DNA of 64,000 nt from Parachlamydiaceae bacterium (GTDB lineage: Bacteria > Chlamydiota > Chlamydiia > Chlamydiales > Parachlamydiaceae): NCBI GenBank assembly GCA_965200675.1, contig CBDAUP010000001.1, positions 67,750 through 131,749 on the forward strand. Direction: 5' to 3'. The position numbers and the translations under genes are program-made. The notes under the pieces are model-generated. The model saw only the letters and a program-made list of their open reading frames with translations. It was not told the origin of the DNA and ran no database searches. Positions 25,058 through 31,000 of this stretch are shown here, piece after piece (the first letter of the stretch is position 1; each line of letters opens with the position of its first letter).

Positions 25058-28000
25058 TTAGCAAGCTATTAAACTGTTATAACTAAGAGAAGTTAGCAAT
25101 TGAGGATGTAAAGGCAACAGGATCTCTTGCATAAACTGTTTAAGTAAAGGTTTTTTGTCAGCTGTGAGCCATCTCTTTAATAGAGTCTCCTGCTGTTCAG
25201 TAAAGTTCAAATCGCCATCGAGCAGCTTCACTTGTAGCTCTAACAGAGCTAAGTTTGGATCTGTTTTGAGCTTGTCTGTTGTCTGCCCATCAAAGCTAGC
25301 CATCACGCCTTGATTGATTAACCAAAGGGTGCCCTTTGTTCTCTTTTGTTGACACAGTTGAGCTGCTTCCAGCTGATCGCAGATATGAAACTCTGTTAGT
25401 TTATGCTCTTGATACTCGATGAGTACATAGTGTAGTGGTTTCATGTAGCCGATAAGCCAACCGGGCATAGCTAGAGAATCACCCTGGACAGTTACCAAGG
25501 CATTTTCTGAGATAGATAATTGGTCAGAGAAAAGAGGGATAAACTTCTGCAATTTAGGGTGCTGGAAAACCTCTGTCAAAGGATGAAAGGTAATCTGATC
25601 GCTGTGGGGCAGAAACTGCTTACCCAACAGGTTAGCCAGGCTCGAAGCTAATTGGGTACTTTGCGTTTCGACCTGTTTCTCCTCTTGCTCTTCCGCTTGC
25701 AAATTGAGTAGCTGCTGTTGAGTTGTCTGCTTAGTGGCCGTTGTTTGTGTTTCAGCAGAGGCCATACTGGTGTGCTGGGTGTTGTCATTCAGCTTGACCT
25801 CTTTAGGATAGAGCATCTGCTCTTTAGCCCTTTCCCATTCAGCTAATAAAGACTCCATTTGGTATTTCTGTGCTAAAGGCTGTCCTTTTAAAGCCGTTTG
25901 GATTTGAATCAGCCGTTGCCTAAATTGTTGTTGGAGCTTCTGTAAGCCTTGATCTATAGGAGAGAGATGGGCTTGCAAGCTGGCTTGCTGCAAAGGCAGG
26001 TCTGCTGTATCTTCAACAAATAATTTTCTTAGAAGCGTGAAATTTTGTTCAAATTCCTTGGAAGTACCCTTTAACGATTCCTGCCAGAAGAGATTCTCCA
26101 AAATAGCTTGGCCCTTTAAATCCAAGGAGGGAAAATTGTGTTGTCCTTTATTTAAAGCCAGTTTTTTGACGGCATATTCTAGGATATCTAAATAGGAGAG
26201 AGCTGTGTCTGGCTCTTTAGCTAAACAGTGTTTGATCGCTAAGGCTGCATTTTTAGTCAGCAGCAAGCGGGCTGTTTGGCCCAGGTGAATGCCGCGCAGT
26301 CGCCCAATACCTTGCACTAATGAAGAAAGGTCATTGTGCTCATTGATAAACACCAGCGCTTGAGCGGTTGGGGCTAACTGGCGATCCGTACCGGTGGTAT
26401 CTTTTTGGGCATAGAGCCAAAAAAGCTGCGATTCTGGCAAATGCGCTAAGACATGAGGGATAAACTTCTTCATGCCTTGCTTTAACACAATCGGCAAGCC
26501 CTGTTGATCAAAGGTGGCCACCCCTTTAAAGTGTGGGAACTGGATCAGCAACTCTTGAGCCACTTGTAACAGGGCTGGATAATCGCGTAAGACTGCGCCA
26601 ATCTCAATCAAAACCGAAGGATGAGTGAGTCCACTAGCTTTGGCTGCCTGAGGTAACAGTTGTATAATCTCCCTACTCTCTTCCGTAGCACATTCATAGA
26701 TGGGCTCAGCTTGGGCATACTTACGCTGCATGGTGATCACGGTCCGGGCTATGGCTAATTCATCCTGAACAATTTCAAACTGGCTAGGCAAGTTTTGGAG
26801 GGAAAGTGTACCGGAAGCGCCAACGACTTCTTTAAAACAAGCGACTAACAGGTGAGGCGTACTGACAATCTTTTCTTCGTAACGGCGCAAATGGGGTAAA
26901 ACGCTCAGAGCGATAAACTGCAAGCGCAAGGGGATGTTCTGTTCTAACTGGGTTAGGAAATGCTCTAAATCAGCGGGTTTCAGGTTGAGTAAGCTTTTAG
27001 GTGCTTGAGGTCCCAGGAGTTTAGTCAACAAGAGAAACTGCTGGTAGCCTCTGGTCTCCTTGAGATTTATTTCTTTCTTCTCCATCTCGGTCGATGCTTC
27101 ATTAGCTAACTGCTCAAAAAAGCGCTGGACATAGTCGAGTGAAAAGGGCGTACGCAGGTTGAGTTGGATGGTGAAGTTCAGGATTTGATCGGGCGAGCAG
27201 TACTCATTGCCCTCTTTCGGATGGCGCGCATCCTCGAGCGGAATGGCAATGCGCTGCTGGGCTAAGTCCAGTGTGCCATAGTGTTCATTGGCATTTTGAC
27301 TCAACGTTTGAAACAGATAATGGTGCAATTGATCGTGCAGGATGCGGATTTGAGTGGCTGACAAAGCTGGTTCAAGGGTAGTTAAATACTGTTCATACTG
27401 CATTTGCGCTTGGCTATCTAGTTGACCGAGCAGATAGGCTTTAGCTTGGTCATCTAGCACTAGACTTGTCTGCTTCAAGATAGCTTCGACCAGCTCAGGT
27501 AGCAGCTGCTGATAGGTCTTTTCTGTCAATAGAGGGAGCTGCTTAGAAGCAGTTGTTTGCCAGCACTCGACGCGGTAGCGCTGGTCGATCACTTGAAAGA
27601 AGGCTTGATAGAGATGGGCACTGAGTACTAAGCGTTCGGGCTTAAAGAACTGATTCATGCCAATCGAGTAGTTGGACTCTTGGCTATCATCTAGCACTTT
27701 GTGCGGTTCATCGATGAACAGGCTAGCCTTTTGTTTGACGTACTGCTTTAATTCTAACAGAGCAGCTAAAGCTGCTGGATTGCTCTTTTGAGCGGCTAAC
27801 TCTTTGGGCTTTAACACCAACAGGTTATGCGCTGTTTGGTCGCTCATGAAGACTGGTTGGCGCTTGCGCTGGGCTCGTTTGAGATCCTTCAAGATCGTTT
27901 GGATGTCTTCTGCCATACTAGGCGATTCTCTCGAAAAATCCAGCCGATAGCCGAATAAACGATACGCTTGTTGTAAGAATTGTTGTAAGCCAGCCTCTTG

Positions 28001-31000
28001 CTGCTCAAATAAAGTAGCTGGCGCAATCATAATCGCCAACGTATCCTCTTTAGCGGTTAACAATAGCCATAAGCGCTCTAAGGCTGTTGATTTGCCAAAA
28101 CCAGTCCTTGCTTCAAATAGGGTCCAACCCTTTTGATTCAATAACTGTAAAGCCTCGACTTGCTCTCGGCGCAATAGAATATGGCTTAAGGCTTCAAAGA
28201 TAAGTAGCTCAGGTGAGGCATTAACAGTATAGGCTCGAGTGGCTTGGCTCTGCGCAACGTAACTTTGGGCTGCTAGCTCCAAAGCCACCGGCTCGGAGTT
28301 AACATGCAGTAAGTTCTGATAAATTTGTAAGGCTTGCCGACAGCGCTGCTTTTTTTGCATCTCTGTCTTGAGTAGGGCATACTGACCGACTAAGTTAATC
28401 AGCTGCTGAATCTCTGAGTCTGTTAAAGTAGGATTGCTCTGGCGCAGCGCTTGGAAGTCTCGACGGCCCAAGGCAATTAGCAACGTCTCCATCTCAAACT
28501 TAAAGCGCAAGTCCCGTTGTAATTCTAAGATAAAGCTGCGTTCTTGATGGGTCTCATTAGCCAAGATTAAGATTGTCTTCTCTAAGGCTTTTAACTCTTG
28601 TTCCTGTTGTGCAATGGCGATGGTATACTGGTCTATGACATCTGCAATCAGCTGTTGATCTTGAGTGAGAGAAAAAGCTGTCGTTTTGTTATCGAGTTCT
28701 TTTAAATAAAGATCAGTCCCTTTAGCCAAGCGTCGAAATTCAGCCGCGGTCAATGGATCCTGTTGATGCTCAGCAACTTGCATTTGTCCCTTAGTCCAGC
28801 TCTGAATTACTTCTACTGCTTGTCTTTCAGCTGCTAACAAAGGCTGCGTTTTTGCGATAATAGAATGGTCATCGATTACTAACTGCTCTTGTATCTCTTC
28901 TAACTGTAAAGAAATATCTAACTTAGCTTGATTGTAGGTTAAAGGAGCTGGCACGATGCTAATTTTTTTAGACTCTAGGGCTTGAATTTTCTGCTTATTA
29001 GATGATTTTCCCAAACACCATTCTCGTGTATTAAAATCAGTATAGCACAAGCTATTGTTAAATTTTGTCTTAAGTCTTTGAAAAGTTTCATTAAATGTTA
29101 GCTCATCTTCTAACGAAAATAAACTTATCATCTCAGCTAAAGAAGGAGCGGATGGACAATCTATAGCTAGAGCTAATAACCAAGCACAAGCTTTGATAGA
29201 ACTGTTTTTATCATCCTGTGTAGCGGTTAATGTGCGTTTTAATAAAAGCAACTGAGCTAGATCTTTTTCTTTAGCTATTTGATAGTAGTTTAAGAAATTA
29301 AGGATAAACTCTTCACTAGGAGCACTAAAAGAAGTTAAAGGTATAACAGTAGTCGCATTGGCTAAAATAGGCTGCTTTATCTTCCATAAAAAATTAAAAG
29401 AGGGGTAGTCTTTAAAATGATGAGCATTAGGTAAAGATTTTTGAATAAACGCCTTAGGTGTATAAAAAGAACTTAAGGTATTTTCTTTCTTTTTAGACAA
29501 TCTATAAATTCCCAAATGATTTTTCAGATCCTGATAGGTTTGCCAATCATTTTCAAAATGGTCGCGTTGCCAATGACTTGTAATTAATTTTTCACCCTGT
29601 TTTCCTTGACAAGCCATCCAAGCTAATAGCTGTATCCGCAAAGCAACCGCATGTGGATGCTGATCGATCTGTTTAGCATAGCGTTCTGCTGTCTCAAAAA
29701 TCCATTTTAGGACTTGCTCTTCCCCTTTACTAAATTCTCTTCTAATGTGGATAAAGCTGCTCTCTTTAATCATCTTTAAAGCTTGACTATACTGTTTTGT
29801 CTTCAAAGATAGATAAAAAAAGAAAAGAGTCGGCAATAAATTCTTTTTAGAATGAGAGGGAAACAATTGACCTGCTGCTAAATCGAAAGTTAGATAGTTA
29901 TTTTTGTTAGAGTGCTCTTCTATGCTGACCGCAGTCTGTTGATAAGGTAAGTGTTTTTGTTTATTGATTTGCTCGATAGGGATCCAGACTTTGCGCTGTC
30001 CCTGCTCATTTTCTAAAATAAACAGATTCTGAAAATGGGGAAAACAAGCAAGAGATTGGTTTTTAGCCACAAAAAAGCCTGGATATTCTTTACAAGTTAA
30101 ACAAGAAAGGCCCGCTTTTTCTCCTGCTAACAAGGTCAAATCTAACTTTCGTAAATCAATGCGATTGATCTGCTGTTGATCATTGAGCCAGACAAGGAGA
30201 TCCTCCTCTTTTGCAATTTCTGTCAGTAAAGCATATAAAAGATTATCAGCTTGCTCTAATTCTCCTAAAATTTCACCTGTTAATTTTCCTTTTTTTAAAC
30301 GCTGGACTGTTTGTCCGATCAGCTGCATTTCTATCACTCTACTTATTTTATTTTCTAAGTAGAGTCTATCTTCTTGCTGCCAAACATGATGAGTGGATTT
30401 AAAACGCTGAAGTAATTTAAACTGATCTAAAGAGGTTAAAAGATGTTGTTCTTTTTTTTTCTTTATTTTGGATAAGCTGATAAAATTAGGAGGGAGACAT
30501 GTTATTTTGTAATTCTGGTCTTGATGTCTAAATAAATAAATTTCTCGCTTGCCTTCTCTAGAAAATTTAGCAAAAATAGCTTGTTGGCCAAAGATATCCT
30601 TATAGTTAGATGATTTTTTAATTTTTTCGGGAATTAAAATGACTTGATCATCGCGATACGTTTCCTCTAAACTATTTTCTACTTCACGCGTTAAAAATTT
30701 AAAAGAGCAGGAGCCTACTTCTAAATGGTCTTTCTCCCATTTTAAAGGCGATGCATGAGAAAATGCGATAAGCTCTAAGGCTTTTGCCCAAATGAAATCA
30801 GCATCTAGGCGTTGTAACATTTTTTTAAAAGAGTGGTAGCCATAGTGTAAGGTAATCTTATCGTAATGGCTAGAAAATCCTTTTAATTCTTGCTGACACT
30901 CTAGTAATAAGCTAGCCGCTACTAAAGTTAAAAACGGCTTGTCTTCTCTCAATGCTTGAGATGATTCTACAATTGGTAAGGCTCCAAAAACGGCTTGACT

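Follow-up and report, generated by a model that had tools for sequence, protein, structure and literature searches.

The 64-kb window analysed here, i.e., a stretch of 64,000 nucleotides of contig CBDAUP010000001.1 from a Parachlamydiaceae bacterium, carries on its minus strand, at 25058..34243 including the stop codon, a gene for a giant protein of 3061 amino acids (aa). On balance, our results point to this giant being a chlamydial (Parachlamydiaceae-type) member of the DUF3638/DUF3645 family, whose members pair two enzyme-like modules, and probably acting as a secreted, host-directed enzyme. One module, in the C-terminal third, is an ATPase of superfamily 2 (SF2) type; the other, near the N-terminus, is a Cys/His domain whose predicted fold resembles that of the Legionella proteins LegA15 and AnkD.

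The C-terminal third carries a conserved SF2-type ATPase

The P-loop NTPase region, aa 1991-2700 (26144..28273, minus strand), is delineated by Pfam, by the alignment A1, by an AlphaFold2 (AF2) model, by Foldseek and by motif conservation. The Pfam family DUF3638 (PF12340) scores 40 bits over aa 2004-2211, above its gathering score of 31 (E 3.5e-10, profile positions 3-213 of 225). Pfam DEAD matches weakly in the same protein and stays below threshold (22.6 bits, cut-off 26), the Pfam scan gives no membership of the Helicase_C, SNF2 or SecA families, and NCBIfam gives no match for the giant protein. Public collections contain an identical protein with PF12340 precomputed; the domain assignment is already part of automated annotation. 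The family is catalogued, and the protein adds a new and uncharacterised member to it.

An earlier note on this DNA, made from its letters alone, had likened the protein to giant eukaryotic P-loop proteins of the DUF3638/DUF3645 type. This likeness holds for DUF3638, whereas the DUF3645 model (PF12359, a 33-residue hidden Markov model, HMM) has no match in the 3061-aa protein at E<=1, and the counterpart of DUF3645 is recognisable by alignment only, at aa 2331-2360 (RIAIPLEDARHPKEGNEYCSPDQILNFTIQ), equivalent to LLAVPFVAKDVPSRSSEFAHPDVVVGLTILA. The stretch is conserved in the homologues described below, with P2335 kept in 161/166, P2342 in 150/166 and T2358 in 143/166.

The family is large. 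A word-indexed protein search retrieves seven full-length relatives of 2864-3211 residues, one of them named 'DUF3638 domain-containing protein [Parachlamydiaceae bacterium]', together with four distant giants, two of which carry both Pfam DUF3638 and DUF3645. Among 1.84 billion representative proteins, the profile of the ATPase region (A1) matches 9,537 clusters at E<=1e-3 and 3,732 at E<=1e-30, these being clusters at 50% identity. Lengths of 3,000-7,000 residues are common among the best 150 of them; word-indexed searches with the ATPase profile add only 5 further proteins.

The earlier note had also placed a complete SF2 motif set at 26280-28110, and this span does bracket the motifs that it named (window 26291-28111). 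Each of them occurs once in the protein and in the order given, on the minus strand: motif I, ARTGFGKST, at aa 2045-2053 (window 28085-28111); motif Ia, IMIAPATL, at aa 2071-2078 (28010-28033); motif II, LFIDEPHKV, at aa 2175-2183 (27695-27721); GASGTL at aa 2475-2480 (26804-26821); the motif V-like QKDTTGTD at aa 2613-2620 (26384-26407); and motif VI, QGIGRLRG, at aa 2644-2651 (26291-26314). A Q-motif-like LLRREQ (aa 2023-2028, window 28160-28177, same strand) stands upstream of motif I, at the place of the SF2 Q motif and just outside the noted span.

Conservation of these motifs was counted in 166 distinct homologues aligned to the A1 profile. Q2028 is found in 159/159 non-gap homologues; in lobe 1, G2050 and K2051 are found in 162 each, D2178 in 161 and E2179 in 165, and downstream, G2478 is kept in 163, T2479 in 164, G2618 in all 166, and Q2644, R2648 and R2650 in 165 each. 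A level of at least 143/166, and mostly above 158, is reached by Q2028, G2048, G2050, K2051, S/T2052, P2075, R2105, D2178, E2179, G2195, P2335 and P2342, and likewise by T2358, G2475, G2478, T2479, Q2613, T2617, G2618, D2620, Q2644, R2648, R2650 and Q2656. The SF2 motifs Q, I, Ia, II, V and VI, with the catalytic Lys, the Asp-Glu pair and the arginine fingers, are all present and near-invariant. Judged by this alignment, the motif set is real, conserved and beyond chance, because DUF3638 scores above its cut-off, homologous clusters number in the thousands and the residues are near-invariant. The reading of motif II as DExH does not extend to the family: its fourth position is Asp in 127/166 homologues, His in 30/166 and Gln in 5/166, which makes DEVD the consensus of the family; DEPQ is found in one close member. 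As far as the aligned homologues tell, DExH describes the chlamydial branch only and the His is not a family feature.

In the AF2 model of aa 1978-2717, built from a 10-sequence alignment, strands and helices alternate around Walker A, motif Ia and the DE strand (aa ~2040-2195), in a first lobe where the Q-like motif and motifs I, Ia and II are found. After it, the model predicts ~250 mostly helical residues (aa ~2212-2460), which include the DUF3645 counterpart, and then a second alpha/beta lobe (aa ~2515-2665) with QKDTTGTD and QGIGRLRG. The best Foldseek matches in the PDB, weak in score, are all SF2 ATPases (RapA, MDA5, RIG-I, INO80/SWR1, ALC1, SecA, FANCM and Hef), which agrees with the SF2/P-loop nature that had been proposed. 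The SF2 assignment is thus sound at the level of motifs and predicted lobe topology, and a closer subfamily cannot be named.

A second catalytic-looking module lies at the N-terminus

A second catalytic-looking module, not seen by the earlier note, is present at aa ~280-445. It forms the core of a Cys-protease-like domain with a helical cap, aa 195-530 (32654..33661, minus strand), delineated by AF2, Foldseek and conservation. In eight close relatives, an invariant set is found between aa 300 and 440, consisting of GG, GH, YE, TNSG.G...H and NPG..Q...SC. The candidate triad is made of His309 (in SGHG), Asn329 (in TNSGEG) and Cys432 (in QQRANSCAVQ), and His337 and Gln427 are also conserved. Among 107 distinct copies of the domain, H309 is kept in 82, N329 in 99, G331 in 96, G333 in 95, H337 in 96, Q427 in 85 and C432 in 84, and an alignment of 18 diverse sequences shows no variation at H309, N329, G331, G333, H337 and C432. 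'SGTCSW' is present in relatives.

The AF2 model of this domain is confident, with a predicted local distance difference test score (pLDDT) of 79 and a predicted template modelling (TM) score (pTM) of 0.76. In the model, H309 starts a strand, N329 ends the next strand and C432 lies in the first turn of a helix. In the PDB, Foldseek reaches prob 1.0 only for LegA15 (7kj6, 7xql) and AnkD (7ew8), with E 4.5e-5 to 1.8e-3, the best being 7kj6 at E 4.5e-5, and the next PDB match falls to prob 0.54. In BFVD, a collection of structures predicted for viral proteins, the matches are N-terminal pieces of giant-virus proteins, namely a Harvfovirus 'ubiquitinyl hydrolase 1' (E 1.1e-8, TM 0.52), a Fadolivirus 'ubiquitinyl hydrolase 1' and a Hokovirus 'DUF3638 domain-containing protein'. 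Pfam has no family for the N-terminal domain, and word-indexed searches with its profile add no proteins.

In the Legionella effector AnkH, the Cys-protease-like domain superposes on the clan-CE protease XopD and the catalytic residues come in the order His, Asp/Asn, Cys, with the His at a strand start, the acid or amide at the end of an antiparallel strand and the Cys before a helix; the family motifs are 'rGHa', 'D/NRg' and 'GNCSWANV' (PMC6712400). A putative triad, H268-N290-C361, has likewise been proposed for LegA15 (PMC9757750). Because of the fold match, the His-Asn-Cys order and the similar spacing, we file the domain of the giant as AnkH/LegA15-like by predicted fold and residue pattern, and favour a thiol hydrolase role, with a GTPase kept as the rival.

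Other assignments of the domain were tried and dropped. A herpesvirus-tegument-like (VTD) deubiquitinase was not retained, as Foldseek gives no VTD or UL36 match; the VTD paper mentions neither giant ATPases nor DUF domains (PMC9741609). With the N-domain profile, HMMER gives weak hits to DNA polymerase mu (E 0.06) and caspase-8 (E 0.4), which a broader profile does not reproduce and which we regard as noise. LegA7 and YopT-type proteases belong to a different family, in which the Cys comes first (PMC11423584).

The paired modules are shared by protists, giant viruses and two bacterial lineages

An HMM of aa 195-520 matches five Legionella giants at their N-termini (E 1e-12 to 1e-17), other chlamydial giants in internal regions, the distant proteins P0009 and P0010, and a protein of the euglenozoan Entosiphon (E 2e-6). 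After three local iterations of this search, both modules are recognised in 109 of the ~170 family sequences, and many of the sequences with no match to the N-terminal domain are short and may be fragments. Stand-alone versions of the motor also exist, since a 1392-aa protein with a DUF3638 core, encoded at 9221-13399 (+) of locus L006 on a 3.9-Mb contig of an uncultured member of the Chlamydiae, has no match to the N-terminal Cys/His-domain HMM.

Across 185,579 bacterial and archaeal species, each represented by one genome, the family turns up at 16 loci; this number is a lower bound, since a single peptide pattern was scanned for. Eleven of the loci are metagenome-assembled genomes (MAGs), mostly labelled Chlamydiae or Parachlamydiaceae and three only 'bacterium'; the other five are Legionella (L. 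bononiensis, L. worsleiensis, L. moravica, L. quateirensis and one MAG), with open reading frames (ORFs) of 3,712-4,147 residues. These Legionella giants (L011 at 4238-16669 (+), from L. bononiensis, and L013-L016), from species outside L. pneumophila, have the Cys/His domain at aa ~5-335 and the DUF3638 ATPase at aa ~1920-2620. Those eukaryotic members that bear a label come from Entosiphon sulcatum, Bigelowiella natans and Paulinella micropora, and these protist homologues have both DUF3638 and DUF3645, in keeping with the likeness to eukaryotic giants that had been noted. The occurrence in protists, in their giant viruses and in two unrelated amoeba-associated bacterial lineages fits inter-domain exchange.

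A mosaic gene whose C-terminal module is shared with a paralogue

The part of the protein that contains the ATPase has a composition of its own. The GC content at third codon positions (GC3) rises from 0.29 in aa 1-1790 to 0.48 in aa 1791-3061; in the remaining 32 ORFs of the window, it lies between 0.15 and 0.43. At the same point, identity to the paralogue P0003 rises from 0.49 to 0.91, and identity to the orthologue P0002 from 0.76 to 0.91: the C-terminal 1280 residues are 91% identical to P0003, compared with 49% upstream. The next relatives after P0002 and P0003 are only ~50% identical in this module, and P0003 most likely lies in the same genome. These values, i.e., GC3 and identity to P0003, delimit a compositionally distinct C-terminal module, aa ~1781-3061 (25061..28903, minus strand), homogenised between paralogues. 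Because the rise in GC3 coincides with the jump in identity to the paralogue, the simplest reading of the sequences would be that the paralogues have repeatedly undergone gene conversion in their enzymatic C-terminal module. The GC3 excess of the tract could possibly come from biased conversion or from an unsampled donor; among 15 billion proteins, no donor above ~52% identity is found for the high-GC3 module except the own paralogue and orthologue.

Origin of the family in Chlamydiae

The earlier note saw in the likeness to eukaryotic giants a possible acquisition of the ATPase engine from the eukaryotic host, by host-to-symbiont transfer, which we regard as possible, with more doubt than confidence. 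Several observations are in its favour: the family is large and found in diverse protists, giant viruses of protists also have it, the genome scan finds it among bacteria only in amoeba-associated intracellular lineages, the GC3 of the C-terminal third looks foreign and the gene neighbourhood (see below) is full of eukaryote-like domains. However, the ATPase does not stand alone in being shared, as the whole two-module architecture is, and the absence of any donor in the search above, own paralogue and orthologue aside, also argues against a transfer of this kind.

In a neighbour-joining distance tree of 173 ATPase cores, in which most sequences are metagenomic and bear no taxonomic label, the protein belongs to its own clade of giants that are 35-52% identical; P0096 and P0143 come next at 28-29%, and then a large clade, 21-26% identical, which contains Chlamydiae MAG loci. 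The nearest branch outside the own clade is at 23-29% identity, against 17-22% for the eukaryotic and Legionella members. The Legionella giants cluster elsewhere, adjoining sequences that include Bigelowiella, and Entosiphon and Paulinella fall in a third group, at 17-22%. Because the nearest relatives are other chlamydial giants, a recent host-to-symbiont transfer is not supported by these sequences; any inter-domain transfer would be old, because the nearest relatives outside the own clade are those of the branch that includes Chlamydiae MAG loci. An ancient inter-domain transfer is plausible from the sequence comparison, its direction being unreadable in a distance tree of mostly unlabelled homologues. 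Overall, the interpretation given in the earlier note is supported in part. The chlamydial branch is old and diversified.

A proposed ATP-coupled, host-directed activity

On the reading that we favour, the giant would combine the two modules in a single, host-directed activity. The N-terminal module would be an AnkH/LegA15-type, Cys-protease-like domain with a clan-CE-like order His-Asn-Cys and the Cys at a helix start, and the C-terminal module an SF2-type motor with two RecA-like lobes separated by a helical insertion of ~250 residues, in which the Q-like motif, Walker A GFGKS, the Walker B DE and the QxxGRxR arginines would handle the NTP. The protein would reach the host amoeba by export, presumably through type III secretion, and several relatives would be anchored by Inc-like segments: hydrophobic, often bilobed segments of this kind are found at aa ~25-115 in 11 relatives (P0004, P0006-P0008, P0018-P0022, P0025 and P0026). 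Besides these segments, the effector reading draws contextual support from the F-box/LRR, ankyrin/GT88, ankyrin and Sel1 proteins encoded nearby (see below) and from the lack of any hit to anti-phage defence models. ATP hydrolysis by the motor could then engage or remodel a polymeric host substrate, whether a protein, a ubiquitin-like conjugate or a ribonucleoprotein, which the thiol active site would cleave or de-modify, and the giant would thereby imitate what the DUF3638 giants of the host itself do. Both the secretion and the coupling of thiol hydrolysis to ATP are inferred.

Several points weigh against this reading. On the side of the motor, the AF2 model is of limited confidence (mean pLDDT 73.6, pTM 0.44) and its Foldseek matches have E 1.9e-4 to 1e-2 with TM-scores of ~0.15; the GASGT string, which the earlier note took as motif III-like, is conserved, but it lies ~290 residues past motif II, behind the helical insertion and in a low-confidence loop before lobe 2, so that the likeness to motif III is one of analogy only. 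On the side of the N-terminal domain, the link to AnkH/LegA15 is structural only, at modest TM values (0.37-0.52 overall, and 0.37-0.44 over 307-367 columns in the LegA15/AnkD alignments), and the profiles A2 and A3, run against all PDB chains, find no LegA15, AnkD or AnkH at E<=10. The protease reading is disputed for LegA15 itself, which a later study describes as a GTPase (PMC9757750). As regards export, the hydropathy scan finds no Inc-like hydrophobic segment in the first 260 aa of the giant, P0002, P0003 and P0005. Finally, the bacterial distribution is the lower bound given above, and the literature shows no activity, secretion or substrate for any DUF3638 protein.

The dispute over LegA15 leads to a different view of the N-terminal domain, which could be an atypical, Cys-dependent GTPase switch, the giant then having two nucleotide-driven modules. 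In that study, LegA15 binds a GTP analogue and has a GTPase activity that depends on C361 and K367, C361 activating water and K367 stabilising the transition state (PMC9757750). The Foldseek match to GNP-bound LegA15 (7xql, E 2.3e-4, prob 1.0) is consistent with this, as are C432 and, seven residues past it, K439, both invariant in the 8-member family. A Lys is found at this position in only 23/107 superfamily members, however, whereas His309, Asn329, His337 and Gln427 are strongly conserved although dispensable or unexplained in the GTPase model. In addition, AnkH function needs the triad, even though no protease activity was detected in vitro (PMC6712400). We therefore consider a GTPase switch unlikely.

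Even less probable, to the point of being quite improbable, is a bacterial nucleic-acid helicase or translocase working inside the bacterium, in a restriction or defence system or a mobile element. The weak DEAD match, weak ResIII matches in relatives and a window rich in mobile and accessory genes (TnpB, an insertion sequence (IS) transposase, ParA and three AAA_14/DUF4143 ATPases) could suggest such a role. Against it, the protein has no PADLOC or NCBIfam match and, in the Pfam scan, no nuclease or methylase domain; the family is confined to host-associated bacteria, protists and giant viruses, some relatives have Inc-like membrane anchors, and the motor is paired with a protease-like domain in the 109 sequences counted above. 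Adhesins and toxins are frequent among the giant proteins of intracellular bacteria, but a giant adhesin or cytotoxin with chance helicase-like strings, for which size alone would speak, can hardly be entertained, as it is refuted by the conservation of the catalytic residues across thousands of homologues and by the significant Pfam match, and the protein has neither repeats nor a signal-peptide-like hydrophobic N-terminus.

The thiol hydrolase reading could be extended to the whole family. DUF3638 giants would then be a class of ATP-driven thiol hydrolases in which an SF2 motor feeds or remodels a polymeric substrate for a clan-CE-like site; protists would be their native setting, and giant viruses, Legionella and Chlamydiae would have captured them repeatedly. 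The copies in Chlamydiae would be secreted mimics of host enzymes, some of them anchored in the inclusion membrane. We put forward this generalisation tentatively, as rather doubtful.

Layout of the protein and of its gene

The remainder of the protein surrounds the two modules. The N-terminal extension, aa 1-194 (33662..34243, minus strand, as are the following regions), is poorly conserved in the identity profile and Pro-rich at aa ~120-170. The middle region, aa 531-1780 (28904..32653), is family-specific according to block HMMs and gives no match in the Pfam scan; its sub-block aa 1201-1500 is common to more distant giants. It is followed by a pre-ATPase segment, aa 1781-1990 (28274..28903), which is delimited by a block HMM and by the shift in identity and GC3, and whose block aa 1801-1990 matches distant giants directly upstream of their ATPase. 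The C-terminal domain, aa 2701-3061 (25061..26143), of unknown function, is defined by invariant columns in the 8-member family, in which the motifs GDS..PGW.NGY.KPLHY (aa 2921-2939) and LLDGD are kept, and its block HMM matches chlamydial relatives.

The ORF is intact, with AT-rich spacers on either side, and a scan for promoters and terminators around the gene gives results no better than shuffled sequence. Its stop lies 29 bp from the end of a convergent gene.

Gene neighbourhood

The convergent gene, at 23412-25028 (+), encodes a eukaryote-type ubiquitin-ligase adaptor of 538 aa, in which leucine-rich repeats (LRR) come after an F-box-like domain. A 526-aa protein (20462-22042 (+)) has N-terminal ankyrin repeats and a glycosyltransferase family 88 domain (GT88, E 1.5e-27), GT88 being the family of the Legionella Lgt glucosyltransferase effectors. 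On the other side, an ankyrin-repeat protein (38017-39066 (-)), a Sel1-repeat protein (39586-40632 (-)) and an ORF at 44229-45509 (-), matched only by NCBIfam TPR/Sel1-type repeat models that score far under their cut-offs, likewise form part of an island of eukaryote-like repeat proteins. The accessory region is rich in eukaryote-like domains. PADLOC defence-system models match neither the giant protein nor its two neighbours.

Mobile and accessory genes are also present. They include a full-length TnpB RNA-guided endonuclease (245 bits) and a second ORF with the C-terminal TnpB part only (50242-51627 (+) and 5376-6845 (-), respectively), a DDE IS transposase (18223-19050 (-)) and three paralogous AAA_14 plus DUF4143 ATPases (10342-11628 (-), 57247-58440 (-) and 60429-61859 (-)). 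Another ORF of the window encodes a GrpB domain fused to a GNAT acetyltransferase domain (8132-9121 (-)). Two ParA/MinD-type ATPases (36777-37430 (-) and 43300-44115 (-)) and a ribbon-helix-helix (DUF6290) antitoxin-like ORF (22567-22929 (-)) may indicate an integrated or plasmid-derived segment; megablast of the giant gene only (25058-34243) against known plasmids gives no match.

Significance and comparison with known systems

The DUF3638/DUF3645 superfamily is large (~9,500 clusters), with many members of 3,000-7,000 residues, and no functional study of it was found in the literature. What is new here is the two-module architecture, the link to AnkH/LegA15, the cross-kingdom distribution and the paralogue mosaic; nothing known is overturned. 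A pair made of an SF2 motor and a LegA15/AnkH-like domain circulates among protists, giant viruses and two unrelated intracellular bacterial lineages, which provides a testable hypothesis for the whole family, namely that of a thiol hydrolase coupled to ATP and directed at host processes. In the Chlamydiae, our results bring to light a multi-copy family of giant candidate effectors, some with Inc-like anchors, whose paralogues appear to exchange their enzymatic C-terminal module.

Among known systems, SF2 ATPases with inserts, such as RapA/Snf2-type remodellers, RIG-I/MDA5 and SecA, resemble the motor in its Q/I/Ia/II/V/VI-type motifs and in the two RecA-like lobes and large helical insertion that are predicted for it, but the giant does not have a canonical motif III (SAT/TAT) directly past motif II. 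The clan CE ubiquitin and ubiquitin-like proteases and acetyltransferases (XopD, ChlaDUB, SseL and YopJ), which are enzymes used by intracellular bacteria against host ubiquitin-like systems, have the same order His, Asp/Asn, Cys; the likeness is second-hand, via AnkH, as no clan CE structure matches directly in fold or sequence.

The Legionella effectors AnkH (LegA3, lpg2300) and LegA15/AnkD (lpg2456) resemble the N-terminal domain, LegA15/AnkD being the sole confident PDB fold matches for aa 195-530. Besides the order of the residues and their positions in the secondary structure, the domains share similar motifs, GHa and G(N/T)CSW, and the spacing H268-N290-C361 of LegA15 is similar to H309-N329-C432 here. 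The giant differs from them in that it has no ankyrin repeats, is fused to an ATPase and has the additional conserved His337 and Gln427; moreover, no sequence-profile similarity to them is detected, and the activity of the Legionella domain is itself unsettled, being either protease-like or that of a GTPase.

A further likeness is to the DUF3638/DUF3645 giant P-loop proteins of protists, fungi and giant viruses. Motif II is DEPH here and DEVD there, the DUF3645 stretch has diverged below the Pfam threshold, the inter-lobe insertion is shorter, the middle and C-terminal regions occur in the chlamydial clade only and ATPase identity is only 17-22%. The chlamydial protein nevertheless shares with these giants a significant DUF3638 match, a similar size, theirs being 3-7 thousand residues, the same block order FE...LRxxQ, GxGK[ST], P..L, FxR, DE, AxP....P...T, GxSGT, Q..TG.D and Q...R.R, and the same pairing with an N-terminal Cys/His domain.

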